From: Halorhodospira halophila SL1
Lineage (GTDB): Bacteria; Pseudomonadota; Gammaproteobacteria; Nitrococcales; Halorhodospiraceae
Direction: 5' to 3'
DNA length: 32,000 nt
Assembly (NCBI RefSeq): GCF_000015585.1
Contig: NC_008789.1
Coordinates: 480,001-512,000, forward strand
Shown here: positions 1,179-21,968 of the stretch, in pieces
How the letters are laid out: the number at the start of each line of letters is the position of its first letter
How positions within the stretch are numbered: the stretch's first letter is position 1
Program-made: the position numbers and the translations under genes
The notes under the pieces: generated by a model
The model's input: only the letters and a program-made list of their open reading frames with translations
What the model was told of the DNA's origin: nothing
The model's database searches: none

Positions 1179-1681
1179 TACGCCTGCTCCCCATAAATAC
1201 TGTCGTCGTTCGCCCCCGGGTGCCGCCCCCCAAGACCGCGGATCTCATGGGTAACTGTACGGCCGGTCAGCCATGTCTCCACCCTTTCAAGCATTTCACC
1301 GGATGGAAGACGATCCTTCCCTCTCATCGCGCATTCCCAAACTTCCAAGACGCGCCACCCGCGATCAAGCAGTTCGGCCCGATTTTTCCGGTCGCGTTCC
1401 CGATTGCGTCCGATCTTTTTTTCCCAGAACTCCTCGCGGGTTGAGGGCATGCGGAAAAGGTGGCAGTCATGCCCATGCCAGAAACATCCGTGAACGAACA
1501 CCACCGCCGAATACCGAGGGAAAACGAGATCGGGGCATCCGGGGAGGTCGCGTACATGGAGTCTGTATCGGAAGCCCCGCGCATGGAGCGCGCGGCGCAG
1601 GACGAGCTCGGGCTTCGTGTCGTGCCCGCGCACCCGGCTCATTACCCGGCTGCGATGTTCCGGAGAGAGCCTGTCGCTCAC
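1178..1681 (-). CDS. vsr: Very short patch repair endonuclease Vsr
   Basis: 167 aa with canonical Vsr blocks: [60 protein letters not shown]. It overlaps the upstream methyltransferase stop by 4 nt, the classic dcm-vsr arrangement. Confidence 0.93.
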
Positions 1682-2988
1682 GCCGTCTCCCTGAACTCCA
1701 TCGGCAGCGCCAGCTGATGGCCATCCTGGTCGGAGCGGATGTCCGCGAGGACGTGTGGCGCCATCGCAGACGCGATCTCACGGATGACCGGAACGACAAC
1801 GGAGTTACCAAACTGGCGATAAGCCTGCGTGTCACTCACCGGGATCCGGAAACTGTCATCGAAGCCCATCAGTCGGGCGCACTCGCGTGGCGTAAGCCGA
1901 CGCGGCCGCTCGCCAGCTCCCCGGTCAACCAGGATCTCGGAGCCGTCCTTGTGGTACCGGGCGGACAGTGTCCGTGCGGTGTCTTCCGGGCCGACCTTAC
2001 TGTAGCCGAAGCCGTTGCCCGCGTGCTCATGCTTGGCCCGATAGTCCTGCAGGTATTTCCAGAGTTTCTCGCTCAGGACGTACTTGTCGCCTACGGTGGC
2101 CAAGTCACCCTCGGTATAAGGGGGTTCCGCGGCTTCCGATCCGTCCTCCGGGTGCAGGACCTCCCGGAGGGTGCGGGCGTCCGGTGCGGGGAAGTCCAGT
2201 TGGTTCCAGGTGAAGGGCGTATCCTTACGGAAGCCAACCATGTAGATCCGCTCGCGGTGCTGGGGCACGAACCCCTTGCCGTCGATGACCCGATCATGCA
2301 CGCGATAACCGAGCTCTTCCAGCACGCGGCGGATCACTTCGTAGGTACGTCCGCCATCATGACTTCGCAGGTTTTTCACGTTCTCGAGGAGGAATGCCCG
2401 TGGACGCTTTACCTCGATGATCCGCGCAACGTCAAAGAACAGGGTTCCCTGCGCCTCGCACAGGAACCCATGCTCGCGTCCCAGGCTGTTCTTCTTGGAA
2501 ACGCCGGCCAGCGAAAAGGGCTGACACGGGAATCCGGCCAACAGGACGTCGTGCTGAGGAATGCGTTCGTCGATAGAGCGGCTGTTCTCATCCGCGTCAT
2601 CTGAGACCGCCGTAATCTGACGGATGTCCGTCTGGATCTCTTCGCCCTCGTTCCCAAAGTTTGCACGGTAGGTCTGGAGGGCGAAACGGTCCCATTCGGA
2701 GGAAAAGACGCAGTGGCCACCGACGCTTTCAAACCCCTGTCGGATACCCCCCACTCCGGCGAACAGGTCAATGAAGGAGAACTGCCCGTCAACGTCAGAC
2801 CGCAGGGGAGCCCGCCGGAGCAGGAGCTGGCTCAGCGCCGGCTCCCAACGATTGGGCATCGGGATCTCGCCTTTCGCCCACCGCCGGACCGTACGTTCGT
2901 CCACCCCGAGTTCACGGGCCACATCCGCCCTCGTGGCCAGCTCCAAGGCCGAGTAAAGCAGTGCGGTCGCAGCATTGGAAGAGTGCAT
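1678..2988 (-). CDS. dcm: DNA (cytosine-5)-methyltransferase with N-terminal HTH
   Basis: C5-MTase motifs occur in order: [50 protein letters not shown]. The N-terminal extension carries an HTH ([16 protein letters not shown]). The ORF is open up to 3066. I prefer ATG 2988 (MHSSNAAT) because GAGGA lies 6 nt upstream, but the start is uncertain. Confidence 0.92.
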
Positions 2989-3208
2989 GGCAGATCCTCT
3001 GGGATTCGTTCCGGACATTGTGCCCGGATTGATTCCCGCCTGTCCAGCACGATGGCTCCTTCGCACCGCGCTTGCCCGACCCCCCCTTTCTCACAGCCTG
3101 GCGGCCATACGACGGATCCCGGGCTGGCCCGCTTGTCACGGCAGGGCTGGATCATCCATCATTGAAATACACAGGGGGGTACCCGCTTAAACAGTCCCGA
3201 TACCTAAA

Positions 3209-3475
3209 ATGCCTGATAGAAACCGGCAACAAGAGAGCCTTTTGGCTGCGGCGGGCGCTTCCATCCGCGAGATCCGTCAAGAGAACGGCCTCAGCCAAGA
3301 GCAGCTGGCCATGGATGCGGGCATAGACCAATCGACCCTGAGCAAGATCGAGCGTATCGGGCCACATGTAACCTCATGGCGGACCCTGTTCGCCATCCTG
3401 GATGTTCTGGGATGTGAAGCCACCATCCTGATATCGAAGCTGGAGGATATCGAAGTTCGCCCACGCCACCTATAG
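3209..3475 (+). CDS. XRE-family helix-turn-helix transcriptional regulator (possible R-M controller)
   Basis: 88 aa. IREIRQENGLSQEQLAMDAGIDQSTLSKIERIG is a textbook Cro/C1-type HTH. It is divergent from the M-V-R operon across a roughly 220 bp intergenic region. No obvious SD precedes the ATG. Confidence 0.8.
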   Translation: MPDRNRQQESLLAAAGASIREIRQENGLSQEQLAMDAGIDQSTLSKIERIGPHVTSWRTLFAILDVLGCEATILISKLEDIEVRPRHL

Positions 3476-4721: not shown

Positions 4722-4828
4722 GACACGACCCTATAAATCCTACGGCCTGCTTTCACGGGCTCTATCGATTGATGCGTGTGACAACAGCTGGTCCGCGCTT
4801 CATGTAGAGACAAAATTGGAAGATCAGC

Positions 4829-4858
4829 AGGTTATCCCCCGCACACCGGGGATGTGCC
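4829..4858 (-). repeat. Solitary type I-E-like CRISPR repeat (or IS-end hairpin)
   Basis: The minus strand reads GCACATCCCCGGTGTGCGGGGGATAACCTG. Compare the E. coli I-E repeat GAGTTCCCCGCGCCAGCGGGGATAAACCG: same CCCCG/CGGGG stem and a similar ATAAxCxG 3' handle. Only one copy is present, with no spacer-repeat periodicity. Confidence 0.25.
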
Positions 4859-4861
4859 AGA

Positions 4862-5332
4862 GCTCTGCTGCGGAAGTCGGGCGAGCAGTTTCGTTACGAC
4901 ATTGATGACGAGGCCTGGACAGCTGCCGAACGTCTCGACGGTAAGCTGCTGCTGGTCACGAGCCTGGACGGCTGGGAAGCGCAGGCGATCGTCGCCCGCT
5001 ACCGTTCCCTGGCCGATATCGAGCGCGGATTCCGGGCACTGAAGAGCACCCTGGACATCGCCCCGGTCTACCACCGGCTGCCCGAGCGCATCCGCGCCCA
5101 TGCGCTGATCTGCTTCCTCGCCCTGGTGCTCTACCGGGTGCTGCGCATGCGCCTGAAATCCAGGGACTCCGCCTTCAGCGTCGAGCGCGCGTTAGAAGCG
5201 CTGGAGACCGTGCAAAGGCACGCGGTCGAGATCAACGGGGAAGCCCACACCGGGGTGTCGATCTCCCCAGAGCAACGACAGCTCTTTCAGGAACTGGAGG
5301 TGAAGCCGCCGAGGCAATCCGACGTCGCTTGA
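4862..5332 (+). pseudogene. IS1634-family (IS4-like) transposase, C-terminal fragment
   Basis: The frame of ORF 5126-5332 extended upstream reads RYDIDDEAWTAAERLDGKLLLVTSLDGWEAQAIVARYRSLADIERGFRALKSTLDIAPVYHRLPERIRAHALICFLALVLYRVLRMRL. This includes the YR..L..IER.FR.LKS.L...PVYH signature of IS4/IS1634 DDE transposases. It has no N-terminal part and is oriented opposite to the 4278-4721 fragment. Confidence 0.7.
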
Positions 5333-5600
5333 GTTGTGCCAACCCAGAGGCGCCCATCCGGCGCATCAATAAGTTATGCGCGCGGCTGTGGAACTCGGGG
5401 GCGCCGGTCCGGGCCGGCTACCCTGCAGCCACGCCGATGGCGGCGTGATCAGCTTACCGGGTGTCCAGCAAACGGGGCACGATACACCCGCCTCTCTGAC
5501 TCAACCTCACGCATTCGCGTGATGGGATACGTGAAGACCCACCTGTGTTCCAATGCTGTCGGATCCCGGATCATGTTTTACGCGCCAAGTGCGAAAGCAA

Positions 5601-6543
5601 CTATTCAACCAACCGGTTTTCCCGGTGCCATTCTAACGCTTCATCCATTACCCGCATGTTGCAATCACTCGGTTCCGTGACGGGTCGGGTATGGAGGCCG
5701 ACCAAGAACTCATTACCCGGTAGATCACGGACCGACTCGGGGACCAATATCTTTCGGTCAGGCGCCACGCCAATCAATCCACGATCAAATGCCCAATGCA
5801 GGTCTTTGGTCAGCGGAAGCCCATTTGCAGGATGATCCGACCCTGCTCTGCTTACAGGGATCACATGTGCAGCGTCCAAACCCAGAACGTTGTCCCCAAC
5901 CGGTGATATGAACTTTCGCCCAGTGAAAGCGCACCTATTATCATACAGTGAAAGAACTTTTCCTCGGAACGCCCTATCGCGTGCCTTCCGAACTGTTTTG
6001 GCCTCGATGATCTCTCGGTTTTCATCGAAAGCGAAGGGAGTTTCAGCGACCTGCCTGTCGAGATATTTTTCAGCCTCCTCGATCTCGTCACTCTCGACCG
6101 GCGGGTTATCCAGGTCTAAGCACCCACACCTGGAACTGCCAATCTTGGTGTTGATTGCGTCATATTCGGGGGTTCCCCGTTCAATCAGATGAAGCTGGAT
6201 ATATCCATCGTCATCAAGGTCTTTCGTGAAGAGAAGAATATCATCCTTTTTGGCTTTGTTCCGGAGGGGCCCGAGGTTATCAGTAAGTCGCCTTTCAGGC
6301 GACCTTTTGCCTCCCCAAGTCTGATACTGGTAGCGTGCTTTGGCAGTACCAACCCTCTGGCCATTTACAAACAGATCCGCGACGAGGTTCAAGCTCAACG
6401 TAGGTTCCTCGCGGGTGGCCACACCCCGGAGGGGGGGGGAAGAAACGCGAAATAGCCTTGGGTATTAAGAAGCCCGCTTGGTGGCCGCGTGCTTTTCCCG
6501 TGTCATTATGGGAAAGCTTCTTGAAAAATGGAGTGTCGAGCAT
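5601..6543 (-). pseudogene. B3/EcoRII-N-like DNA-binding domain fused to an HNH nuclease; frame broken in a C9 tract
   Basis: ORF 6295-6543 begins MLDTPFFKKLSHNDTGKARGHQAGFLIPKAISRFFP, a B3-type pseudobarrel motif as in EcoRII-N/BfiI-C (tentative). ORF 5601-6422 continues the fold and ends in an HNH_2-type nuclease (NRCAFTGRKF..LDAAHVIPVSRAGSDHPANGLPLTKDLHWAFDRGLI). The two frames switch inside the C9 run (G9 on plus strand, 6432-6440). Removing one C gives one 313-codon frame (..AISRFFPPLRGVATREEPTLSL..). This region is visibly less GC-rich than its neighbours. Confidence 0.72.
6432..6440. repeat. G9/C9 homopolymer inside the B3-HNH gene
   Basis: Counted directly (a ggggggggg aa). It coincides exactly with the frame switch between ORFs 6295-6543 and 5601-6422. 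Confidence 0.95.
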
Positions 6544-6884
6544 AGGGCCGTCCAGATCACATGGTCCGAGTTAGATTCGTATCATTGCGACTATCTTGTC
6601 AAGTTGTTTTGAGCGGGGGCCCCGGAGTGCGCAAGGCATAGAGGGGAACACCGGAGGACGTGGGCCTCAGGGAGGTGAGTGGCCACCGCGGCTAGAATCT
6701 GCCAGTGGTGGGGGGCCTTTCTCGCCGCAGGCGAGGCCGGACTCAGGGGCGGCAGCGCGCAGGATACGCGCAATGAGCAGCTCCACCAGCCCCGGGCCAA
6801 AGCCGGGGACGTGACCATGGATCTGGAAGCCTCGGGCGGCGGAAGAGATCAACAAACCACGCTCCGAGCCGGGCCCTCCTTTGA

Positions 6885-8231
6885 CTAGCAGGGTGCTGAG
6901 AAACGGTCTTCTGCGTGGCCACCGAGGGGTGTCGAAGGTGATCTACGATGGCCGGGTGGCGTTCCAAGCGGGGGGTGATACCCGCCAACCCGGCGGTGCC
7001 CCAACCCGCCTGCGCCCGGAAGGGGCCGGGCAGCAGGGGATGGAGGCACTCCGCCCCCATCTCAGCCAGCCCCGAGCAGTTTGGGTGTGCGGACCAGGTT
7101 GTAGGCCAGGGCATGGAACCCGAAGTCCCACCCCACCCTGTCTGGTCCGATGAAGCGGGTCTTGCGAAGGCCACCGACGGTCTTGGACCAGCCGAAGAAC
7201 TCCTCGACGCGCTTGCGGATGCGCTGGCTGACCGCATAGCCGGGGTGGCGCGTCGTCCGACCATCCACAGCATTGAACCGGCGCTTCTCGGCAACATGGG
7301 GCGTAACCTCGTACTCGCGCAGGGCCTGGACGAAATCTCGGGTGTTGTAGCCGGCGTCGCCAGCAAGCGTCAGCCGGCCTCGCTCTGCAGGGATCTCGCG
7401 GATCATCTCCAGGGCCGCCTCCCGCTCGGCGGTGCCACAGGCCTGGGTTAGGCGGGTATCGACGATGAGCCCATGACGGTTCTCCATCAGGGCATGGCCG
7501 ATATAGCAAAGCCGCGCAGGCTGCCCCTGGCCCTTGCGGTAGAGCCGAGCATTCGGGTCCGTGCTCGAGGCGTGGGTATCGTTGCGCCGCTGCTGACCCC
7601 GGAAGTTGACCGTCGGATTGCGCCCGCCGCTCTGCAAGTCATCATCACCCGAGCTGTCGCCGTCCTGGCTGATCGGCTTGAAGCTCTTCATCGAGGCCCA
7701 GGCCTCGATGAGCGTGCCATCGACCGAGAAGTGCTCGTCGGAGAGCAGGGGCCGAACCTCCTCGAGTTCCGTGAACGAGCGCAGCAGGCGCTGCGCAACC
7801 TCCGCCTCGATCAGGCGGTCCCGGCTCTTGGTGAAGGTGGTCGGGTGCCAGACGGGGTCATCGACCTGGAGCCCGACGAACCAGCGGAACAGGAGGTTGC
7901 AGTCGAGCTGCTCCATGAGCAGCCGCCCCGAGCGGATCGAGTACAGGGCCTGAAGCAAAAGCGCCCGGATCAGTCGCTCCGGCGGGATCGACGGCCGACC
8001 GGTGCCCGAGTACACCGCGTCCAGCTCGTCCGAGATCGAGTCGAGCAGCCGATCAACGAGGACACGGATCTCGCGAAGAGGGTGATTCTTGGGGATGCGA
8101 TCTTCGAGGCTGACGTAGCTGAACATGTGCTGTTGCTCGACATCCTCACCGCGCATCCGGAGACCTCCTGTTCCGCCGTCAACGACACCCTCTATGATAC
8201 CGCGCAGCCGAGTTTTTCAGCAGCCTGCTAG
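6885..8231 (-). mobile_element. IS5-family insertion sequence, apparently intact
   Basis: Terminal inverted repeats CAGGGTGCTGAGAAAC (6889-6904) and CAGGCTGCTGAAAAAC (revcomp of 8212-8227) match at 14/16. They are flanked by CTAG at 6885-6888 and 8228-8231, the 4-bp YTAR-type duplication typical of the IS5 group. A single transposase gene lies inside. Confidence 0.8.
7062..8156 (-). CDS. IS5-family DDE transposase
   Basis: 364 aa. The N-terminus QQHMFSYVSLEDRIPKNHPLREIRVLVDRLL...GRPSIPPERLIRALLLQALYSIRSGRLLMEQLDCNLLFRWFVGL is the typical IS5/DUF772 transposase N-domain. The C-terminal DDE region includes LAGDAGYNTRDF. Confidence 0.9.
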   Translation of the reverse strand: MRGEDVEQQHMFSYVSLEDRIPKNHPLREIRVLVDRLLDSISDELDAVYSGTGRPSIPPERLIRALLLQALYSIRSGRLLMEQLDCNLLFRWFVGLQVDDPVWHPTTFTKSRDRLIEAEVAQRLLRSFTELEEVRPLLSDEHFSVDGTLIEAWASMKSFKPISQDGDSSGDDDLQSGGRNPTVNFRGQQRRNDTHASSTDPNARLYRKGQGQPARLCYIGHALMENRHGLIVDTRLTQACGTAEREAALEMIREIPAERGRLTLAGDAGYNTRDFVQALREYEVTPHVAEKRRFNAVDGRTTRHPGYAVSQRIRKRVEEFFGWSKTVGGLRKTRFIGPDRVGWDFGFHALAYNLVRTPKLLGAG

Positions 8232-8275
8232 AGGAGGCGGAAGACACGCCTGAGGCCATCGCCCCAGAGGACCTC

Positions 8276-8677
8276 TTGCTCTGGGACAGAGTCCTCGAAT
8301 ACTGGTACAAATGCATTGAGGGCCGAGAAACCCCGAGCCACCTCTTCGCCGAAGCGCTCGGGGTCGCGCTGCACCATTTCGATGACCTCGTCTCACAAGG
8401 CACAGAGTCGGGCACCAATGCTCAGGCCAAACTGCCAGGGGGTGAGATCGTCCGGCGATTCCTTGAGGAACCGGAGAGCTTCCCCTTTCGCGTGATGGGT
8501 CGCAACGGTGGCTTTACTGGAGCCGATCTGAAGCGCGACATCGCTTCTCCCACGACCTGGCAAGCTCAAATGTACGAGGTGAGTACTGATGATGTGCCCC
8601 CCAACCGCAATTGGTTTCCCATCGAGGAGTTCGTTAAGGCGACCCAAAATCCAGATTACCTCGACGCATCACGCTAA
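8276..8677 (+). CDS. Hypothetical protein (weak call; TTG start)
   Basis: The frame is open from the IS5 right end and has mostly G/C third positions, but there is no recognisable motif and no ATG or GTG start. An 84-aa antisense ORF (8393-8647) with a vague HTH-like stretch competes. It ends 32 bp upstream of the DUF2779 gene. Confidence 0.3.
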   Translation: MLWDRVLEYWYKCIEGRETPSHLFAEALGVALHHFDDLVSQGTESGTNAQAKLPGGEIVRRFLEEPESFPFRVMGRNGGFTGADLKRDIASPTTWQAQMYEVSTDDVPPNRNWFPIEEFVKATQNPDYLDASR

Positions 8678-8708: not shown

Positions 8709-10190
8709 ATGCCCCGCCTGTCCAAATCCCGCTTCATAGCCGGCTGGCAGTGCCCGCTTCGGCTCTGGTACACGGTCCACGAGCCCTGGCGAGCCACGCC
8801 GCCTGATCCCCAGTTGCAAGCGATCTTCGACCAGGGCCACCGACTCGGGCAATTGGCTCAGCAGCGCTATCCATCCGGGGTGCTCGTCGAAGCGGATTAC
8901 CGACACACGCGCCAGGCCCTCGAGCAAACGCAGGTGCTGATGGCCGACCCGGGCGTGCCGGCGATCTTTGAAGCCGCTCTGGAGCACGACCAGGTCCTGA
9001 CCCGAGTGGACGCGCTCGTTCGAAACGGGGACGGGTGGGACCTGGTCGAGGTCAAGGGCGCCACGCGTGCCAAGGAGGTTTTCCAGCTCGACGTGGCGAT
9101 CCAGTATTGGATCCTCACCGGTGCCGGCATCCCGGTACGCGATGCCGGGCTGCTGTTGATCGACCGTGACTACGTCTATCCGGGCGGCGCGCACGACCCG
9201 CAGGAGTTCTTCCGGTTCGAACCGCTGACCAGAACCTGCGAGCACTGGCTTGAGTGGATCGAGGCGCAGGCCGTCTCCTTCCAGGAGGTTGCCGCCCGTA
9301 CAACACCACCCCAGATCGAAATCGGGCAGCAGTGCTTCAGCCCTTACCCCTGCCCGTTCTACAACCACTGCTCTGCTGACAGGGAGTGGCCCGAGCACCC
9401 GATCGAGGAGCTACCGTATCTGGCCGGCGAGCGTTACCAGGGCCTCCTCGAGCGGGGTGTCACAACCATCGACGCCATCCCCGACGATTACCCGCTTACC
9501 GTCGCTCAGAAGCGGATCCGAGACGCCGTTGCCAAGGGGCATCCCTGGACCGATCCCGACCTGGGTGAAGCCGTTCAGGGTGTGGAGTGGCCTCTCTTCT
9601 TCCTGGATTTCGAGACCGCACAGCCGGCCTTACCCCGTTACCCCGGAACCTCCCCGTTTCAGGCCTTGCCGTTCCAGTTTTCCTGCCATATCCAACGAGC
9701 CCCCGGGGTCGCCCCGGAGCACACGGACTTTCTGGCCACCGCCGATACCGACCCCCGCCGCCCACTTGCCGAGGCACTGCTCAACGCACTCGGTGACCGC
9801 GGATCGATCGTCGTTTACTCCAGCTTTGAGCGGCGGGTCCTCGGCGAACTCGCCGATGCGCTGCCGGATCTCGCTGAGCCCTTAGCCGCCCTTCAGGAGC
9901 GGCTGTGGGATCTGCTACGGGTCCTGCGGAACCACTACTACCACCCGGCTTTCAAGGGCTCCTACTCCATCAAGCGGGTCCTGCCCGTACTGGTTCAAGA
10001 CCTCGACTACACCGCCCTGGAAGTGGCCGATGGCCAGGCCGCCGCGCAGGCCTGGATCCAGATGCTCGACACGGATTGCGACGAGGAACGCGATCGGCTC
10101 GCCCAAGCCCTCCGCGAATATTGCTTCACCGACACGCTGGCCATGGTGCGACTGCGCGAGGCGTTACTGCGTGCCGCCGGAGAGCTGTGA
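8709..10190 (+). CDS. DUF2779-type protein: Cas4/AddB-like PD-(D/E)XK nuclease plus DEDD-type exonuclease
   Basis: 493 aa. N-terminal half: Cys15 (GWQCPLRLWY), RVDALV..DLVEVKGAT, QLDVAIQYW and the cluster CFSPYPCPFYNHC, giving four Cys consistent with Cas4-like Fe-S ligation. C-terminal half: FLDFET (ExoI-like), IVVYSSFERRVL (ExoII-like), CFTDTLAMV (ExoIII-like). Confidence 0.85.
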   Translation: MPRLSKSRFIAGWQCPLRLWYTVHEPWRATPPDPQLQAIFDQGHRLGQLAQQRYPSGVLVEADYRHTRQALEQTQVLMADPGVPAIFEAALEHDQVLTRVDALVRNGDGWDLVEVKGATRAKEVFQLDVAIQYWILTGAGIPVRDAGLLLIDRDYVYPGGAHDPQEFFRFEPLTRTCEHWLEWIEAQAVSFQEVAARTTPPQIEIGQQCFSPYPCPFYNHCSADREWPEHPIEELPYLAGERYQGLLERGVTTIDAIPDDYPLTVAQKRIRDAVAKGHPWTDPDLGEAVQGVEWPLFFLDFETAQPALPRYPGTSPFQALPFQFSCHIQRAPGVAPEHTDFLATADTDPRRPLAEALLNALGDRGSIVVYSSFERRVLGELADALPDLAEPLAALQERLWDLLRVLRNHYYHPAFKGSYSIKRVLPVLVQDLDYTALEVADGQAAAQAWIQMLDTDCDEERDRLAQALREYCFTDTLAMVRLREALLRAAGEL

Positions 10191-10261
10191 CACCGCCGGA
10201 GCCAGTTCCCTGCTCCCCCCTATCCGACAAACGCCACCCGACTCCGTCGGCCCGCCTCCCA

Positions 10262-11926
10262 TCACGATGCCGCGTTCTCCAGCCGTTTCCGCCACGCGGA
10301 ACCCTCAGCGACCAGCACCTCGCAGGCCACCGAGGCCCGGGTGAGCGCACAGTAGAGCAGACGCTGCTCACGCTCGGGCCGGCTACCGTCGAAATCGACG
10401 TCCATCAGGATCACGGCGGGGCGCTGCTCGCCCTTGAAGCGATAGACCGTCTCGACGCGTAAATCGCCCTTCGAGTACACCGGCTGGCCGTCTTCGGTGA
10501 AATCCCCCGTAAACCGCTTGAGGCGGTAACGACCCAGCCGGGCCGTCTCCGCCAGTGGATCACGGCCGTGACCGTGCAGGCTCAGCAACACCATCTGATC
10601 CTTGCGAAAGCCCTCGCTCTCGAGGTGTTCCACAGCCTGAAGAAGGGCCTCGCGCTGCTCATCGGCCGTTGCGTACCGGGTAACCCGCGGCTTATGGCCG
10701 TCGAGCGGATTACGCCAGTCGATATCGACCTCGAGCAGGCGACGGACGAACTGCGCAATCCGGCGTGGCGTCCGAAAAGCCTTGCCCGTTCGGTAGGTGA
10801 CGAACGCGGACTGTTGCTGGTCGTTGCGCCCGTAGAGATCCTGCTGGGGGTCTTCCAGCCACAAGACCGGTGCATCATCGTCGACGAGACAGATGCGCAG
10901 GAGCTCCCACCACTCTTCGGAGAAGTCCTGCCCTTCATCGACGATCAATCGGTCGAAACAGGGCAATCGCTCGGAATGCTCGATGAGCCGGTCCGCCACC
11001 TCGCTCCAATACTCCTGGGGCTCCCGCCGCGCCCGCTGCGCATCGAAGCTCTCACCAACGGCCTCAAGCCAGGCATGACAAAGGCGGTGGAAATTGCCGA
11101 CGTCAGCGTTGCCCTCCAGTCGTGCGCGCAGCCGGTCGCCCAGGACGCGGTTGAAACAGACCAGCGCCGGTCGTTCTCCCCGGGCTTGCGCAGCCTCGAA
11201 AAACTCGATCGCGGCAATCGTCTTCCCGCTACCCGCAGCACCGATAACCCGAAGGCGCCATGGGCTCATCTCCAGCCCCTGGACCAGCTCGGTGATGCCA
11301 CCAGCGAGACGCTGGAAGGTCTGCTCCTGAAGCGTGACCTCGTCGCCGAGATCCGGTGCCAAATCCAGCTCCTGCGCGAGCACGCGCCGAACCGTCCGGG
11401 CTGTATCCGGCGCGTCCTGCCCCGGCCCGAGCTGCGCCTCGACGGATGCGGGGAGTTCTTGGACTCTTGAAGCATCGACGATCTGCTCGCGAGAGAGCCC
11501 AGCCGGTGCGTCCCCCTGCAGCCGGTGCGCCGGGCAGTACAGCAGCAGGCTCATACCCGGCGGCTTGCGGCCACCGAGACCGCGCTCGAGGGCTCCGAGC
11601 AACCCTTCGCGGCTGCGGTGCAGCTGCCGGACCACGTCCTTGGGGCCGCGCTCATGCCCGTAGTCCTTGCCGAGCAGGCCGTCGCTCTCAGCCAAAGCCC
11701 CGTTCTTCTGCTCAATCAGCAGGACCTCGCCGGCGGCGTTAACGACGACAAAATCCACCTCACCGAACACGGCGCCCCGCCCGGACCCGGCACTCCAGTG
11801 CACGCCGTGGTAGACGGTGTAGCTCTGCGGCAGCGAGTCGCCCAGCCACTCCAGCGTCCTAAGCTCGCGCTCCGGCGCACCGGCCAGCCGAAGGGTGTCG
11901 ATGTTGGAAGGGTGAACATGCGCCAT
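10262..11926 (-). CDS. NERD-domain nuclease-like / SF1 (UvrD-like) helicase fusion
   Basis: 554 aa. NERD-like GEVDFVVVNAAGEVLLIEQKNG at the N-terminus. Then Walker A GAAGSGKT, Walker B IVDEGQD, and C-terminal UvrD_C-like YRFKGEQRPAVIL and LLYCALTRA. Confidence 0.88.
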   Translation of the reverse strand: MAHVHPSNIDTLRLAGAPERELRTLEWLGDSLPQSYTVYHGVHWSAGSGRGAVFGEVDFVVVNAAGEVLLIEQKNGALAESDGLLGKDYGHERGPKDVVRQLHRSREGLLGALERGLGGRKPPGMSLLLYCPAHRLQGDAPAGLSREQIVDASRVQELPASVEAQLGPGQDAPDTARTVRRVLAQELDLAPDLGDEVTLQEQTFQRLAGGITELVQGLEMSPWRLRVIGAAGSGKTIAAIEFFEAAQARGERPALVCFNRVLGDRLRARLEGNADVGNFHRLCHAWLEAVGESFDAQRARREPQEYWSEVADRLIEHSERLPCFDRLIVDEGQDFSEEWWELLRICLVDDDAPVLWLEDPQQDLYGRNDQQQSAFVTYRTGKAFRTPRRIAQFVRRLLEVDIDWRNPLDGHKPRVTRYATADEQREALLQAVEHLESEGFRKDQMVLLSLHGHGRDPLAETARLGRYRLKRFTGDFTEDGQPVYSKGDLRVETVYRFKGEQRPAVILMDVDFDGSRPEREQRLLYCALTRASVACEVLVAEGSAWRKRLENAAS

Positions 11927-12125
11927 GACGCACCCCGCTCCGCCGTCCCTGGTTCGAACGCATTCGCGCTCTGGCTCATGCCAAACACCCTACCACCCAT
12001 CGGGCCACGGTTTGCCGGACTGATCGGCTGCTGCGTACCTGAGACGCCAAGCTTCTATATGAAGCCGCGGGGACCCCGCGACATCAGCTGTCGCCGCAAT
12101 CGGTTGGAATGGCCTGGTCCCGGGC

Positions 12126-12156
12126 GGGATACACCCATCGACGAACGGGGTATATC
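12126..12156. promoter_or_regulatory. Imperfect inverted repeat in the divergent NERD-helicase / ARH intergenic region
   Basis: GGATACACCC (12126-12135) and GGGGTATATCC (12146-12156) pair at 9/10 with a 10-nt spacer. The repeat lies 50-80 bp upstream of the ARH ATG. A regulatory role is purely speculative. Confidence 0.2.
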
Positions 12157-12205
12157 CTTGGCAAGGACGCCACCGGGACCCATCCGCCATGGACAAGGAC
12201 GAATC

Positions 12206-12967
12206 ATGCTCGGAGCCATCGCCGGCGACATCATCGGCTCGATCCACGAGTTCGGCCCACCGGCCCCGCCAGGGACGCCGCTGGTGGATCCACGCTCCCA
12301 CTACACCGACGACACGCTGCTGACCCTCGCCACCATGGAGGCATTACTGGAGGGCGCTGACTACGCCAGCGTCTACCGTCGGGCATGGGAGGCCGAGCCG
12401 AACCAGTCCTGGGGCGCGCGTTTTCAGCAGTGGGCCCGGGAACCGGGCGCCGCTCCCTACAACAGCTTCGGCAACGGCTCGGCGATGCGGGTCAGCCCCA
12501 TCGCGCTGTGGTTCCAAGACCGTCAGCAGGCCCTCGAAGCTGCCGCCGCCTCCGCGGCCGTAACTCACGACCACCCGGAAGGTATCAAAGGGGCGCAGGC
12601 GACGGTCGATGCGATTCAACAGGCCCGCGACGGCAGGACCGGCGACGCGATTCTGGCTGCGGTATGCGAGCGCTACGGCTACGAGACGACGCCCTCCCTG
12701 GACGCCCTGCGGGCAAGCAGTCGCTACAACGAGACCTGTCAGGGCACGGTGCCCCCGGCCATTCAGGTCGCCTGCCAAAGTGCCTCTTTCGAAGCGTGTA
12801 TGTCGACCTGCCTAACCCTCGATGCCGATACCGACACCCTCGCGTGCATCGCCGGTGGTGTTGCCGAAGCTCGATTCGGCGTGCCGGATTGGGCGGTGGA
12901 ACTCGTGCAGACGCGCCTCGGGCACGAACAGTGGGCCCTGGTGCAGCGGTTTTACCAGGAGGGATGA
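12206..12967 (+). CDS. ADP-ribosylglycohydrolase family protein
   Basis: ARH/DraG-family blocks: MLGAIAGDIIGS, HYTDDTLLTLA, FGNGSAMRVSPI, AVTHDHPEGIKGA, DADTDTLACIAGGVAEARFG. ATG 12206 is preceded by AAGGAC. The upstream part of listed ORF 11525-12967 is antisense to the helicase gene. Confidence 0.88.
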   Translation: MLGAIAGDIIGSIHEFGPPAPPGTPLVDPRSHYTDDTLLTLATMEALLEGADYASVYRRAWEAEPNQSWGARFQQWAREPGAAPYNSFGNGSAMRVSPIALWFQDRQQALEAAAASAAVTHDHPEGIKGAQATVDAIQQARDGRTGDAILAAVCERYGYETTPSLDALRASSRYNETCQGTVPPAIQVACQSASFEACMSTCLTLDADTDTLACIAGGVAEARFGVPDWAVELVQTRLGHEQWALVQRFYQEG

Positions 12968-13416
12968 TGCTCTACTTCGCGTTTGGCTCCAACATGCTCA
13001 CCAGCAGACTCCAGGCACGGGTGCCCTCGGCAACCCCTGTGACTCGGGCATTTTTACAGGGCCACCAACTCGCCTTTCACAAACGAGGCGCCGACGGCTC
13101 GGCCAAGTGCGACGCCTTCTGGACCGGTCAGCCGGAACACTGGCTACCGGGCGTCGTCTTTCGCATGGATGCCGCGCATTTGCCGGCACTCGACGACGCC
13201 GAAGGACCGCGCTATGACCGCATCGACGTCACGGTCCAAAACGACGACGACACGCCCATGGAGGCCTTCACCTACCGGGCCAAGCCCGACGCGGTGATGG
13301 ACGGACTCCAGCCGACAGCGACGTATTACCGCTACGTACTCAACGGCGCGATCGAGCACGGGCTGCCGGCGTGGCACATTGAAGCCATTCGGTACGTAGC
13401 CGAGGCGCCTTCGTGA
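12964..13416 (+). CDS. Gamma-glutamylcyclotransferase (GGCT/AIG2-like) family protein
   Basis: MMLYFAFGSNMLTSRL (YGSNL-type motif) and LPALDDAEGPRYDRIDV (conserved Glu region). Its ATG overlaps the ARH stop as ATGA (12964-12967). Confidence 0.85.
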   Translation: MMLYFAFGSNMLTSRLQARVPSATPVTRAFLQGHQLAFHKRGADGSAKCDAFWTGQPEHWLPGVVFRMDAAHLPALDDAEGPRYDRIDVTVQNDDDTPMEAFTYRAKPDAVMDGLQPTATYYRYVLNGAIEHGLPAWHIEAIRYVAEAPS

Positions 13417-13444
13417 CGGACTAACCGTCGGGGGACTGCAGGAC

Positions 13445-13663
13445 CTAACCATTTAAACCGGATTCCTTGAACGTCCCACCGCCAGCCGGCGACAACGCCA
13501 CGCGCATCGCCTGCCGACGCAAGTCCGCCTGCTCTTCGGCACGGCGCCGGGAAATGCACACCGCCGACGACGACTCACCGGCGAGTGCCGCACCTCCACC
13601 GTGATCGCGCCCCGGTGCACGCTCGATCGGATGCCTCGACGATGCCTGTTGTGCGCTGGCCAT
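13445..13663 (-). CDS. Hypothetical small protein (72 aa)
   Basis: The internal ATG at 13663 of listed ORF 13445-13705 is preceded by GGAGGAAGC, a strong SD. The product has no recognisable motif. Confidence 0.25.
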   Translation of the reverse strand: MASAQQASSRHPIERAPGRDHGGGAALAGESSSAVCISRRRAEEQADLRRQAMRVALSPAGGGTFKESGLNG

Positions 13664-14450: not shown

Positions 14451-14527
14451 AGGCGCGTAGCTCAGCTGGTTAGAGCGCCACCTTGACATGGTGGAGGTCG
14501 GTGGTTCGAGTCCACTCGCGCCTACCA
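14451..14527 (+). tRNA. tRNA-Val (anticodon GAC)
   Basis: 77 nt folded by hand: acceptor AGGCGCG/CGCGCCT, D arm GCTC-AGCTGGTTA-GAGC, anticodon arm CCACC-TTGACAT-GGTGG, T arm GGTGG-TTCGAGT-CCACT, encoded CCA. Confidence 0.95.
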
Positions 14528-14538
14528 GATACGCCGTA

Positions 14539-14595
14539 CTGCGCCCGGTCGCGACCCCTGCTCTCAGGGCCCCATCGCGCCGGGCGCAGCTTTTC
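14539..14595 (+). terminator. Long GC-rich hairpin plus CTTTTC between tRNA-Val and thrS (terminator, attenuator or processing site)
   Basis: CTGCGCCCGG (14539-14548) pairs with CCGGGCGCAG (14580-14589). Inner stems TCGCG and CCCTG/CAGGG add to the structure, followed by CTTTTC. The T-run is weak. Confidence 0.4.
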
Positions 14596-14640
14596 ATGCA
14601 CGTGGCCCCTCGTATCGGTCACCACTGTGGAGGTTCAGCC

Positions 14641-16563
14641 ATGCCCGCCATTACCCTCCCTGACGGTTCCGTCAAAGCGTTCGACCACCCGGTCACCACC
14701 CGCGAGATCGCCGAGTCCATCGGCCGCAAGCTGGCCAAGGACGCCATTGTCGGGCGCGTGGACGGTGAGCTGATCGACCTGGATCGCCCCATCGAGCACG
14801 ACGCCTACGTCGAGATCGTCACCAGCAACGACCCGGACGGGCTTGAGGTGATCCGCCACTCGACGGCGCACCTGATGGCCCAGGCGGTCAAGCAGCTCCA
14901 CCCGGAGATGCAGGTCACCATCGGCCCGACGGTGGATAACGGCTTCTATTACGACTTCGCCGGCGAGCGCTCCCTCTCGGAGGACGAGCTCGAGACCATC
15001 GAGCAGCGCATGAGCGAGCTGGCCGAGGCGGATCACCCCGTCGAGCGCGAGGTCTGGGACCGTGAGGCAGCGCGGCAGTTCTTCCTGGAGCAAGGCGAGA
15101 CCTACAAGGCGCAGATCATCGACGACCTGCCCGAGAGCGAGACCATCACGGTCTACCGCCAGGGCGACTTTGCCGATCTGTGCCGCGGCCCCCACGTGCC
15201 GAGCACCGGCAAGCTCAAGGCGTTCAAGCTGACTAAGGTGGCGGGCGCTTACTGGCGCGGTGATCAGAACAACGAGATGCTCCAACGCGTCTACGGCACC
15301 GCCTGGCCGGACCGCAAGCAGCTCAAGGCCTACCTGGACCGCCTCGCCGAGGCCGAGCGGCGCGACCACCGGCGCCTCGGCCGGACCCAGGATCTCTTCC
15401 ACGTCCAGGAGGAGTCGCCGGGGATGGTCTTCTGGCACCCGCGCGGCTGGCGGCTCTACCTGGAGGTACAGGACTACATCCGCCGGCTGATGCGCGACAA
15501 CGGCTACCAGGAGATCCACACGCCGATGCTGGTAGATCGCAGCCTGTGGGAGCGCTCCGGGCACTGGGCGATGTTCGCCGAGAACATGTTCGTCACCGAG
15601 TCGGAGTCCCGCGACTACGCGGTCAAGCCGATGAACTGCCCATGCCACGTCGAGGTTTTCAAGCAGGGGTTGAAGAGCTATCGCGACCTGCCCCTGCGCC
15701 TGGCGGAGTTCGGCTCCTGCCACCGCAACGAGCCCTCCGGCACGCTCCACGGGCTGATGCGGGTGCGCGGCTTCGTGCAGGACGACGCGCATATCTTCTG
15801 CACCGAAAACCAGATCCAGGAGGAGGTGCGCACCTTCATCGACCTGGTCTACCGCGCCTACCGCGACTTCGGTTTCGAGGACGTACTCATCGCCCTCTCC
15901 ACCCGCCCGGACGAGCGGGTGGGCGACGACGCCCTCTGGGACAAGGCCGAGTCGGCCCTGGCCACCGCGCTGGAGACGCACGGGCTCGACTACACCCTGC
16001 AGCCCGGTGAGGGAGCCTTCTACGGGCCGAAGATCGAGTTCTCCCTGCGCGACTGCCTGGAGCGCGTCTGGCAGCTGGGCACCATTCAGGTGGACTTCTC
16101 CATGCCGGGCCGGCTGGGGGCGCAGTTCGTCGATGACGACGGCGAGCGGCGTACGCCGGTGATGCTCCACCGGGCTATTCTCGGGTCCCTGGAGCGCTTT
16201 ATCGGCATCCTGATCGAGCACTACGGCGGCGCCCTGCCCACCTGGCTCGCTCCGGTCCAGGCGGTGGTGCTCAACATCACCGACCGCCAGGCCGACTACG
16301 CCCGCTCGGTGGAACAACAGCTGCTGGAATCCGGCTTCCGCGCCGAGGCCGACTTGAGGAACGAGAAGATCGGCTATAAAATCCGCGAGCATACGTTGCA
16401 GAAGGTCCCCTACATGCTGGTGCTCGGGGACCGGGAGCTGGAAAGTGGTACGGTGGCCGTCCGCCACCGCGACGGCACCGACCTCGGCTCCATGGAACTG
16501 GAAGAGCTCGTAGCGCGGCTTAGCAACGATATCGCGGGTCACGAGCGCGAACAGGAGGATTAG
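14641..16563 (+). CDS. thrS: Threonine--tRNA ligase
   Basis: [28 protein letters not shown] is the canonical ThrS TGS N-terminus, and the class II core ([20 protein letters not shown]) follows. GGAGG lies 8 nt upstream of ATG 14641. The longer listed ORF (from 14488) overlaps the tRNA gene. Confidence 0.97.
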
Positions 16564-18822: not shown

Positions 18823-21201
18823 ATGCGTGTAAGTGAGCAGTGGCTGCGCGAGTGGGTGAACCCGTCGCTCTCGACCCAGGCGCTGGCGGAAGCCCTGACC
18901 ATGGCGGGCCTCGAGGTCGACGCCGTCGAACCCGCCGCCCCGCCCTTCAGCGGGGTAGTGGTCGGCGCGATCACCGACTGCCGACCCCATCCCGAGGCCG
19001 ACCGCCTCCAGGTCTGCACGGTGGACGCGGGAGGCGAGCGGCTGGAGATCGTCTGCGGGGCCCCCAACGCCCGCCCCGGGCTGCACGCCCCCCTGGCGCG
19101 TGCGGGTGCCGAGCTCCCGGGCGGGCTTCAGGTCCAGGCCACCGAGGTGCGCGGTGTGGCCTCGGCCGGGATGCTCTGCTCGGCCAGCGAGCTCGGCCTG
19201 GCCGACGAGGCCGGCGGCCTGCTGGAGCTGCCCGAGACCCTCGCGCTCGGCAACGATCTGCGCCAGGCCCTGGCACTGGATGACACGATCCTTGAGATCG
19301 ACCTCACGCCAAACCGCGCCGACTGCCTGGGCATGACCGGGATTGCCCGGGATGTGGCGGCGCGCACGGGTGCCGAGATGCAGTCCACCGAGCCGCTGCC
19401 GGTGCCGGCGGCCTGCGATGCGCAGCTGGAGATCTCGCTCCAGGCCGAGGCGGACTGCCCGCGCTACACCGGCCGGGTGATCCACGACGTGAACCCGCAG
19501 GCGCCCACCCCCATCTGGATGCGTGAACGCCTGCGCCGTGCCGGGATCCGCAGCGTTTCGGCCCTGGTCGATATCACCAACTACGTGATGCTCGAGTCCG
19601 GTCAGCCGCTGCACGCCTTCGACCTGGACCGCCTGGCACCGCCCGTCACGGCACGGCGGGCGCACTCCGGCGAGACCCTCACCCTGCTCGGCGGGGAGCA
19701 GGTGGAACTCGATGACGGGGTGCTGGTCATCGCCGATGCTAACGGGCCGGTGGCATTCGCCGGCGTCATGGGCGGCGAGACGACGGCCGTGAGTGACGAG
19801 ACCACGAGCATCTTCCTGGAGGCGGCGCACTTCCACCCCACCACCATCGCCGGACGCGCCCGGCGCTACGGCCTGCACACCGATTCCTCCCACCGTTTCG
19901 AGCGAGGGGTGGACTTCGAGGCGCCGCGCGCGGCCAGCGAGCGCGCCACGCAGCTGGTTATCGAAATCTGCGGTGGCCGGCCCGGGCCGATCAACGAGGC
20001 CGTGGCCCATCAGGCACTGCCGCAACGCGCACCCATCGAACTGCGCCGAGAACGGCTGGAGGGACTGCTCGGCTGGTCCATCGAGCCGGAACAGGTCACC
20101 GGCATGCTCCGGCGCCTGGGCACGGAACCTGAACCCAGCGCCGATGGGTGGCGGGTTCAGCCGCCGAGCTGGCGCTTCGACATGGAGCGCGAGGTCGACC
20201 TGATCGAGGAGGTGGCCCGCCTCTACGGCTTCGACAATGTGCCGGAGCGGCCCCTGCGCGCCCCGCTGCACGTGGCCACGGCCCCGGAGCAACAACTCGA
20301 CGACCGTCCGCTGCGCACTACGCTGGTCGAACGCGGCTACTTCGAGGCGATCAATTACGCCTTCGTCGATCCGCAACTCCAACAGCGCCTGGACCCGGAA
20401 TCCGAGGCCCTGCCGCTGGCCAACCCGCTCTCGGCGGAGTTGGCGGTGATGCGCACCTCCCTGTGGCCCGGCCTGCTGATGGCGGCACAGCGCAATCAGC
20501 ACCGCCAGCATGAGCGCGTGCGACTGTTCGAGTGCGGGCGCACCTTCCGCGGCCACCTCGACGATCTGGCCCAGACCCCCATGCTCGCCGGCCTGGCCGC
20601 CGGGCCCCGCTACGCCGAGCAGTGGGATGCGCCACGCCGGAGCGTGGACTTCTTCGACGTCAAGGCCGACCTCGAAGCCCTGATCGCCCAGACCGGCAAC
20701 GCCTCCGCGTTCACCTTCGAGCCGGCACAGCACCCGGCCCTGCACCCGGGCCAGAGCGCCCGGATCCTGCGCGACGGGGTCTCGGTCGGCTGGCTCGGCA
20801 CCCTGCACCCCGAGCACGCCGACGCCCTGGAGCTCCACGGCGCCCCGGTGCTCTTCGAGATCACCCTGGAGGCGCTGAGCAGGGCGGAGCTGCCGCGCTT
20901 CCAGCCCATCTCGCGGTATCCGTCCATCCGCCGGGATCTGGCGGTGCTGGTGGACGACCACGTTCCCGCGGGCGAGTTGCTGCGCACCGCCCGCGAGGCA
21001 GCCGGCGATTGCGCCGTCGGCGGCCGGCTGTTCGACGTCTACCGCGGCAAGGGCGTCCCGGATGGCCAGAAAAGCATCGCCATGGGCTTGATTTTGCAGG
21101 ATTATTCCCGCACGCTTACGGATCGCGACGTGGACGACGTCATGGCGGGCGTGGTCTCCCGCCTGCAGCAACAGTTCGGAGCGAGCTTGAGAGGGGAGTA
21201 G
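18823..21201 (+). CDS. pheT: Phenylalanine--tRNA ligase beta subunit
   Basis: 792 aa starting [14 protein letters not shown] (E. coli [14 protein letters not shown]). tRNA-binding, B3/B4, B5 and FDX-ACB regions are recognisable. Confidence 0.97.
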
Positions 21202-21202
21202 G

Positions 21203-21508
21203 ATGTCGCTGACCAAGGCGGACATGGCCGAGCGGCTCTTCGAGGAAGTCGGCTTGAACAAGCGCGAGGCCAAGGAGCTGGTCGAACTCTTCTTCGAGGA
21301 GATCCGTACCGCCCTCGAGAACGGGGAACCGGTCAAGCTCTCCAGCTTCGGCAACTTTGAGCTGCGCGACAAGAACGAACGGCCCGGCCGCAACCCGAAG
21401 ACCGGGGAAGAGATCCCCATTTCCGCCCGGCGCGTGGTGACCTTCCGCCCCGGCCAGAAGCTCAAGAGCCGCGTCGAGAGCTATGCCGGAACCCGAGAAG
21501 AGCAGTGA
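21203..21508 (+). CDS. ihfA: Integration host factor alpha subunit
   Basis: [35 protein letters not shown]...[29 protein letters not shown] is the canonical IHF-alpha sequence. Confidence 0.96.
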
Positions 21509-21891: not shown

Positions 21892-21968
21892 CGGGGCGTG
21901 GCGCAGTCTGGTAGCGCACCTGCATGGGGTGCAGGGGGTCGCAGGTTCAAATCCTGCCGCCCCGACCA
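21892..21968 (+). tRNA. tRNA-Pro (anticodon GGG)
   Basis: 77 nt folded by hand: acceptor CGGGGCG/CGCCCCG, D arm GCGC-AGTCTGGTA-GCGC, anticodon arm CCTGC-ATGGGGT-GCAGG, T arm GCAGG-TTCAAAT-CCTGC, encoded CCA. Confidence 0.95.

Follow-up and report, generated by a model that had tools for sequence, protein, structure and literature searches.

A DUF2779 nuclease gene and a NERD-helicase gene lying tail to tail in a Halorhodospira halophila defence island: a candidate facultative partnership in DNA degradation

We analysed a stretch of 32,000 nucleotides from Halorhodospira halophila SL1 (NCBI RefSeq assembly GCF_000015585.1, contig NC_008789.1, positions 480,001 to 512,000 of the forward strand), hereafter the window, which is a defence island of this organism. 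Our subject is a pair of nucleic-acid-processing genes within it: a DUF2779 gene, whose product carries two predicted nuclease domains, and a NERD-helicase gene, whose product fuses a NERD nuclease domain to a predicted superfamily 1 (SF1) helicase. Both open reading frames (ORFs) were found precisely where a sequence-only reading of the window had placed them, tail to tail with a gap of 71 bp, and they are laid out as follows (aa, amino acids):

8709-10190, plus strand: DUF2779 gene, 493 aa
8709-9383, plus strand: Cas4/MGME1-like PD-(D/E)XK nuclease domain of the DUF2779 protein, aa 1 to ~225
9384-9593, plus strand: helical linker of the DUF2779 protein, aa ~226-295
9594-10190, plus strand: RNase H-fold DEDDy-type 3'-5' exonuclease domain of the DUF2779 protein, aa 297-420 by Pfam and on to the C-terminus
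10191-10261: convergent intergenic spacer between the two genes, 71 bp
10262-11926, minus strand: NERD-helicase gene (NERD plus SF1 helicase), 554 aa
10262-11287, minus strand: compact SF1 (UvrD/HelD/Schlafen-like) ATPase core of the NERD-helicase, aa 214-554
11588-11869, minus strand: N-terminal NERD PD-(D/E)XK nuclease domain of the NERD-helicase, aa 20-113

The DUF2779 protein belongs to PF11074, with a Pfam match of 145.9 bits over aa 297-420 against a cut-off of 23.3, and its AlphaFold2 model has a pLDDT of 94.8. Conservation, here and for the helicase, was judged in alignments of 28 DUF2779 and 22 NERD-helicase homologues of 37-60% identity. The N-terminal half holds both the D...(D/E)xK site and the QxxxY motif of Cas4/AddB-type Fe-S nucleases: D101, E114 and K116 (LVEVK) are invariant, as is Q132, which in the window protein is followed by Y133 (QLDVAIQY). 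Four cysteines, C15 in GWQCP and C209, C215 and C221 in CFSPYPCPFYNHC, reproduce by residue position the arrangement of Fe-S cluster nucleases, with one N-terminal and three C-terminal residues; C15 is kept in at least 90% of homologues and the other three are invariant, and we regard the four as putative 4Fe-4S ligands. In Foldseek comparisons this half of the model resembled Cas4 (8d3l_I, E = 8.6e-5; 4r5q), MGME1 and RecE. The C-terminal half gave weaker RNase H-fold matches, including the DinG exonuclease domain and RNase H (E = 0.013-0.1), and the Pfam RNase_H_2 model stayed below its cut-off (17 bits vs 22). It nevertheless carries the residue set of a DEDD 3'-5' exonuclease in invariant form, namely D300 and E302 (FLDFET), E374 (SSFERRVL, Glu in place of Asp), and Y471 and D475 (YCFTDT). 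When the DUF2779 profile was compared with PDB chains by sequence, no match appeared even at E <= 1, leaving fold comparison as the only informative route to known structures. The linker between the halves contains a conserved segment, G-[IV]-x-x-[IV]-x-x-[IV]-P, together with conserved columns at L235, L246, P258, L263 and Q267 and modelled helices at 240-248 and 265-276; from these features we can only infer a helix-hairpin-helix-like DNA-binding element. Neither Pfam nor the model revealed a P-loop or helicase domain. We read the protein as a Cas4-like Fe-S PD-(D/E)XK nuclease joined to a DEDDy-type exonuclease, both activities being predicted from its motifs and modelled fold.

This architecture has already been published. 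It was noted in a survey of the RNase H-like superfamily, which put PF11074 in a 3'-5' exonuclease clade (PMC3985635), and it was analysed in detail for the Mycoplasma homologue MMSYN1_0389 of JCVI-syn3.0 (PMC13621843); both papers state that it has no known function, so the remark of the sequence-only reading that no role had been defined for it still holds. The family is widespread: a single scan of species-representative genomes yielded no fewer than 593 confirmed matches. The window protein shares its two-domain plan and catalytic residues with the other PF11074 proteins and with the TM0106 RecB-like nucleases of TIGR03491, which its N-terminal half matched weakly (E = 7e-11). It differs from other DUF2779 proteins in being shorter (493 aa) and in lying in a defence island beside a NERD-helicase and the remnant of a nuclease partner, and it keeps four Fe-S cysteines where the Mycoplasma protein keeps only two (PMC13621843). 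Its best structural match is Cas4, including solo-Cas4, with which it has in common the D-E-K site and the four-cysteine arrangement; unlike Cas4, it is fused to an exonuclease and has no cas genes among the neighbours of the pair and no CRISPR array in the window. The Pfam Cas4 model (PF01930) does not match it, and the PADLOC hits of its N-terminal half to Cas4/DruK-type PD-(D/E)XK models are weak (E = 1e-4 at best for the Cas4 model). With no array, no cas neighbours and no PF01930 match, assignment as a CRISPR-associated Cas4 was rejected.

The NERD-helicase carries a NERD (PF08378) domain, as shown by a Pfam match of 26.7 bits (cut-off 22.1) and by the invariance of E56 and D58 in GEVDF and of E72 and K74 in IEQK. 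Its ATPase half matched UvrD_C_2 at 42.2 bits (cut-off 27.4) and displays the SF1 motifs, with the Walker A lysine K235 (GAAGSGKT), the Walker B residues D330-E331 followed by Q333 (VDEGQD), R385, R496 (YRFKG) and R530 (LTRA). K235, D330/E331, R496 and R530 are invariant among homologues. We assign this half to the SF1 UvrD-like ATPases, and it is a predicted helicase. All motifs that the sequence-only reading had quoted for the two proteins were recovered, and they proved invariant or nearly so, well past what chance would give. The AlphaFold2 model (pLDDT 88.7) matched SLFN11/14, UvrD, RecD2, HelD and Dna2 in Foldseek, with UvrD, RecD2 and HelD at E ~1e-12 to 1e-10, and HelD was also matched by sequence (E = 8e-11). 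The top whole-protein matches were SLFN11 and SLFN14 (Schlafen group III), innate-immunity proteins that likewise place a nuclease N-terminal to an SF1 helicase; they differ in being eukaryotic, in having another nuclease fold and tRNA/rRNA substrates, and in sharing only 12-14% identity with the NERD-helicase. The family is rare: out of 1.84e9 representatives, 253 match it at E <= 1e-30 and 4646 at E <= 1e-3.

Several known or candidate systems share parts of this design. PADLOC matched the NERD-helicase to C3a187 'NERD+UvrD' and to RTasNERD-Hel (E = 6e-16 and 7e-12), mostly on the helicase half (aa 193/226-551); both models describe the same fusion of NERD and SF1 domains, and both are candidates rather than validated systems. 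The cluster of NERD-helicases associated with UG34 reverse transcriptases was described by Mestre et al. (PMC9226505), and membership of such a system was rejected, there being no reverse transcriptase gene near the pair in the window. Gabija was rejected as well, with marginal GajB matches (E >= 1e-4, over short stretches) and no GajA-like gene adjacent. Staphylococcal Nhi, a nuclease and SF1-type helicase in one polypeptide, is reported to degrade phage replication intermediates (PMC11084316). The likeness to Nhi that had been proposed for the NERD-helicase is retained, by comparison of descriptions, at the level of single-polypeptide nuclease-helicase logic; family membership is not supported, PADLOC having returned no match named Nhi at E <= 0.01 from a library in which the presence of an Nhi model is unconfirmed. 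Taken across the pair, the parts list of AddAB, RecBCD, AdnAB and Dna2 is indeed present, as had been suggested, in the form of an SF1 motor, PD-(D/E)XK nucleases and a nuclease domain with an Fe-S 'staple'. Membership of AddAB/RecBCD itself was rejected: the nuclease of the helicase is N-terminal to the motor and of the NERD rather than the RecB type, the DUF2779 protein is without the helicase-like scaffold of the second subunit, and the two genes are convergent. A phage origin of the genes was likewise rejected, as PHROGs gave only a generic helicase match and 2.9 million viral contigs yielded only 7 and 10 distant relatives of the two families, with both genes together in none.

To compare neighbourhoods, we took 10 kb around the 80 best DUF2779 loci from species-representative genomes and around 80 NERD-helicase loci from metagenomes, and inspected 5 further loci singly (loci are numbered L below). 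Short peptide patterns served to retrieve the loci, and similarity to rank them, which makes the sample biased and the rates rough; the genome set was dominated by Nitrospirales and neighbouring ORFs were called naively. Listing same-strand ORFs up- and downstream was too noisy in high-GC DNA, and all-against-all clustering of ORFs was used in its place. A NERD-helicase lay within 10 kb of DUF2779 in 3 of the 80 genome loci (L007, L081 and L025), and DUF2779 lay within 10 kb of a NERD-helicase in 2 of the 80 metagenome loci (L122 and L103), while one of the five singly inspected loci (L089) had the two genes divergent and ~300-440 bp apart. Including the window, we count eight independent co-localisations, spread over Gammaproteobacteria, Alphaproteobacteria, Chloroflexota and unassigned metagenome contigs and differing in gene order.

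Three of these eight are operon-like. In the metagenome locus L175 the NERD-helicase is followed co-directionally by a third gene, which we call partner A, and then by DUF2779, with gaps of 71 nt and 25 nt; the products are the closest relatives of all three genes at our locus (helicase 73%, partner A 50% and DUF2779 59% identity), and two GmrSD genes come after the trio. In the Chloroflexota locus L081, DUF2779 shares 42 nt with the NERD+UvrD helicase that follows it, and a PDDEXK_4 nuclease comes next; in the Dehalococcoidia locus L025 the helicase precedes DUF2779 with a gap of 20 nt. The genes are 2.3-5 kb apart in L007, L122 and L103, and L007 is flanked by a TPP enzyme and an OYE oxidoreductase, with no obvious defence island. 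A rough estimate, in which cluster counts served as a proxy for gene frequency and which is good to an order of magnitude, put the expected number of chance adjacencies in ~37 non-Nitrospirales DUF2779 loci well below 0.01. A census of 134 ORFs within 2.6 kb on each side of 32 non-Nitrospirales DUF2779 loci contained mostly metabolic Pfam families, and the NERD-helicase was its most recurrent PADLOC family, with 3 members. The eight co-localisations in distant lineages, three of them operon-like, and the recurrence of the helicase in the census support a linkage beyond chance. The link that the sequence-only reading had proposed between the two genes accordingly stands as a facultative one: the low co-occurrence, at ~3-4% of the sampled loci of either family, and the variable arrangement rule out an obligate two-gene module. 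In the literature searched, we found no report that pairs DUF2779 with NERD-helicases and small PD-(D/E)XK proteins.

The region upstream of the DUF2779 gene in the window contains a remnant of partner A, next to an insertion sequence (IS):

6885-8231, minus strand: IS5-family insertion sequence (Pfam DUF772 and DDE_Tnp_1)
7062-8156, minus strand: IS5 transposase ORF
6885-6904 and 8212-8231: 20-nt terminal inverted repeats of the IS5 element, 90% complementary
8232-8677, plus strand: partner A remnant, a pseudogene (ORF called at 8276-8677, 133 aa)

This ORF had been missed by the sequence-only reading, and the presence of a third gene changes the picture of the unit. Its frame stays open all the way from the right-hand IS5 inverted repeat, and it matched aa 188-311 of the gene upstream of DUF2779 in H. 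halochloris (42% identity, E = 2e-29) and the partner A of L175 (50% identity), so that it represents the C-terminal domain only. Full-length partner A is a PD-(D/E)XK-type protein of ~317 aa that sits directly upstream of DUF2779 in H. halochloris and L175, and it abuts DUF2779 in L084 and L175. The family is small (43 proteins found), and its alignment shows invariant E69, P97-D98 and E121-A-K123, a PD-(D/E)XK signature; 18 members scanned against Pfam gave no match. Kinship of partner A with the NERD domain, with a second small family described below (partner B) or with PDDEXK_4 is not supported: hhalign aligned the D...ExK core with probabilities of only 0.3-2%. The nuclease half (E69, P97-D98, E121-x-K123) is missing from the window, which makes the remnant a pseudogene, and a permissive tblastn search left of the IS5 element (6300-6900) did not find the N-terminal half there. 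The IS5 insertion, probably with an adjacent deletion, destroyed partner A.

Such damage raises the question of whether the remaining genes still work. If the IS5 event had also taken a promoter or an essential subunit, the locus would be decaying and its two intact ORFs inert. Partner A is cut exactly at the IS5 end with its nuclease half gone, and no sigma-70-like promoter was found between the IS5 element and DUF2779, in a scan that is a weak test at 65% GC. Yet neither ORF is shortened or has lost a conserved catalytic residue, and in most genomes DUF2779 has no partner A. The gene order of the window, moreover, was found again on the H. halophila contig NRRO01000022 of an NCBI assembly, and the helicase adjoins the 3' end of DUF2779 on two short contigs from separate sequencing runs. 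We therefore regard decay as very improbable.

The reading that we favour, at a probability of roughly 45%, is that the two genes are facultative partners, a nuclease and a nuclease-helicase that together would break down DNA starting at ends or nicks, here without their third part. The most complete known form of the unit is that of L175, with NERD-SF1 helicase, partner A and DUF2779. In such a unit, the NERD-helicase would load at a DNA end, a nick or a replication intermediate, where its NERD domain would cut and its SF1 motor would unwind. The motor-less DUF2779 protein could then degrade the displaced strands with opposite polarities, 5'-3' through the Cas4-like nuclease and 3'-5' through the DEDDy exonuclease, and partner A or a PDDEXK_4 nuclease might add a further cut. 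The net effect would resemble the end processing of AddAB/RecBCD or Dna2, aimed at invading DNA. These steps follow the general behaviour of Cas4, AddB, Dna2, DnaQ-like exonucleases and SF1 helicases. H. halophila retains at best a two-gene version, whose genes must be transcribed separately. Foreign DNA is suggested as the target in this clade by the island context, with restriction-modification (R-M), Vsr and HNH genes here and BREX, Dnd and GmrSD genes in relatives.

A number of observations weigh against this partnership. The other family was not found within 10 kb in 77 of the 80 DUF2779 loci and in 78 of the 80 NERD-helicase loci, and order, orientation and spacing of the two genes vary between loci; in the window they are not co-transcribed, because they are convergent. 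An upstream partner accompanies DUF2779 in H. halochloris, Aquisalimonas and Natronospira, with no NERD-helicase nearby. The most frequent immediate neighbour of the NERD-helicase is instead a WYL-WCX regulator, found near or next to it in L178 as well as in 9 of 87 loci. Further defence genes also occur at several of its loci, with a DUF6361-PLD-DEAD helicase set in two, and in one each BREX, McrBC, a Zorya-type pair (EH_Signature plus SNF2), and reverse transcriptase or DO-GTPase genes. DUF2779 is in turn tightly abutted by partners of its own (partner A, partner B, and WYL genes in L004 and L122), and IetA-like AAA genes are about as recurrent near it as the helicase. Since IetA-like AAA and WYL genes recur by both families at similar rates, the co-occurrence may partly reflect a shared island guild. 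All of this would suit two independent single-gene systems whose adjacency is mere co-residency in an island, the helicase being a stand-alone and usually WYL-regulated system and DUF2779 with its upstream nuclease partner a separate unit, an explanation that we consider nearly as probable as the partnership. What co-residency hardly explains is the overlap or the gaps of 20-25 nt in two or three phyla, the occurrence of some co-localisations outside obvious defence islands (L007), and the continued linkage of the closest relatives of all three genes despite rearrangement. DUF2779 and the NERD-helicase are members of a loose neighbourhood guild, in which only the helicase and the small nucleases make operon-like contact with DUF2779.

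The distribution of DUF2779 outside islands also tells against a partnership devoted to defence. About 45 of the 80 DUF2779 genome loci are from Nitrospirales, where the gene lies in two conserved housekeeping syntenies without the helicase, one with MatE, ketopantoate reductase, a HAD hydrolase and ValS, the other with a radical-SAM enzyme, aroQ, efp, accB, accC and thiE. Together with the metabolic neighbours in the 32 other genomes of the census, this rules out DUF2779 as a pure defence-island gene. It also bears out, for the Nitrospirales, one of the two outcomes that the sequence-only reading had named as refuting a defence module, residence in housekeeping neighbourhoods; the other, that the two families never co-localise, did not materialise. 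DUF2779 might then be mainly a housekeeping nuclease for repair or turnover, MGME1- or MrfB-like and only occasionally captured by islands, with the helicase as unrelated defence cargo. The Foldseek matches to MGME1 and RecE would agree with that, and WYL regulators of the PafBC type also control DNA-damage responses. The Mycoplasma homologue MMSYN1_0389 is quasi-essential in a minimal cell (PMC13621843), and in M. bovis a DUF2779 gene is among the coding sequences disrupted in transposon mutants, in a table that also has recD, holA and dnaB (PMC7373297). Against a housekeeping role of the window gene stand its position in an IS- and R-M-rich island with a GC content below that of the adjoining core genes, and the surroundings of its closest clade (57-60% identity), whose members lie beside BREX, Dnd or GmrSD genes, or IS66 and MobA genes, and variable nuclease partners; the recurrent contact with the NERD-helicase would also go unexplained. 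We judge this explanation improbable for the window; elsewhere, to judge by the Nitrospirales and Mycoplasma data, DUF2779 may serve in repair or turnover. Defence and repair or turnover could rest on the same chemistry.

Returning to the facultative partnership, a bolder version of it, which we regard as doubtful, would have DUF2779, the NERD-SF1 helicase and a small PD-(D/E)XK protein form an unrecognised three-component DNA-end-degrading system of immunity or repair, of which H. halophila would hold a two-gene version damaged by IS5. This would be a split AddAB/Dna2-like system that combines a motor with as many as four nuclease sites, often WYL-regulated and with gene orders that differ between Gammaproteobacteria and Chloroflexota. 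The DUF2779 architecture and the standing of NERD-helicase fusions as defence candidates were known before; the recurrent link of DUF2779 to NERD-helicases and small PD-(D/E)XK proteins is new, and it gives DUF2779 a first concrete and testable hypothesis, that of a motor-less dual-polarity exonuclease working with a nuclease-helicase. For cloning, a three-gene cluster of the L175 type is a better locus than the window. Confirmation of the hypothesis would extend the known means of defence and repair by a nuclease-helicase system and account for a family of solo Cas4-like proteins; should it fail, the island simply holds two more unvalidated single-gene candidates.

The small genes beside DUF2779 are of several kinds. 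In H. halochloris, Aquisalimonas and Natronospira, which hold the three closest relatives of the DUF2779 protein that bear a name, the DUF2779 start is abutted or overlapped by a 246-319 aa gene without a Pfam match. Defence neighbours in close relatives are BREX with AbiE, Dnd with Mrr, and GmrSD (L175). Partner B, an unrelated family of small proteins, shows a D...EAK motif and likewise lacks a Pfam match. Its genes directly adjoin DUF2779, on the upstream side in two Gammaproteobacteria and on the downstream side in a Dehalococcoidia metagenome-assembled genome (L086 9149-9991, L087 9260-10000, L010 11473-12231). Another conserved gene, of 229-266 aa, lies downstream of DUF2779 in Dehalococcoidia L045, L060 and L071.

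WYL regulators flank DUF2779 in L004, L103 and L122, overlapping or abutting it, which, together with their frequency beside the helicase, suggests that both genes are often under WYL-type control, with sensing of DNA damage or infection. WYL-WCX genes were located at L093 9654-10628, L178 224-1327, L122 5179-6222, L103 950-1942 and 7133-8149, and L004 9009-10004, and also in L106, L118 and L119; the annotated part of the window (~1-14.5 kb) has no WYL gene. The tandem-AAA ATPases form a family of 692-749 aa with 32-45% mutual identity, the L004 member of which matches PADLOC IetA. They lie within 10 kb of DUF2779 or the NERD-helicase in six loci (L004 6775-9024, L011 ~12000-13655, L087 13780-15858, L103 2017-4164, L100 ~19895-21445 and L106 ~4826-6484), with no copy in the window. 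The DUF6361-led set was found directly beside the NERD-helicase on two unrelated contigs, on its upstream side in one case and its downstream side in the second (L093 1637-7960 and L094 9818-14835); in L093 it runs from DUF6361 through a PLD-like protein to a large DEAD/Helicase_C protein, and in L094 the two genes after DUF6361 have no Pfam match on record.

The context that had been described for the pair, with IS5 on one side, an ADP-ribosylglycohydrolase (ARH) and gamma-glutamyl cyclotransferase pair on the other, and an island rich in IS and R-M genes around them, was correct. The features on the helicase side are:

12206-12967, plus strand: ADP-ribosylglycohydrolase gene (Pfam)
ending at 13416, plus strand: gamma-glutamyl cyclotransferase-like gene, after the ADP-ribosylglycohydrolase
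14451-14527, plus strand: tRNA-Val(GAC), where the variable island (~1-14.4 kb) gives way to the thrS core operon

The ARH gene is divergent from the NERD-helicase gene, with 279 bp from start to start. ARH genes adjoin NERD-helicase-like genes in three places, namely the window, L100 (12065-13873), where a tandem-ARH protein comes directly after McrB-McrC-NERD-helicase, and the viral contig L195 (9989-10765); the recurrence may be fortuitous or point to another accessory link. Scanning and folding of the 71-bp spacer between the convergent genes gave no convincing intrinsic terminator or stable hairpin, with no signal above shuffled sequences (z-score 0.6). In the protein search, the helicase was recovered at 100% identity as an H. 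halophila entry, whereas DUF2779 had no match above 60% identity even though the collection searched includes NRRO01000022 with an identical called gene, probably an indexing gap.

Further left in the island are an EcoRII-C endonuclease, Vsr, a Dcm-type methylase and an HTH regulator (~1-3475), a second transposase fragment (~4823-5332) and an HNH_2 nuclease (5601-6422), whose C-terminal half resembles phosphorothioate-dependent restriction enzymes (E = 7e-21, under the family cut-off). On the core side, the longest thrS ORF (14488-16563) overlaps tRNA-Val(GAC), which means that thrS must really begin further downstream. An imperfect tandem repeat at 22140-22227 (period 45 or 24, ~2-3 copies), unrelated to the DUF2779/NERD-helicase pair, lies ~170 bp downstream of tRNA-Pro (21892-21968).

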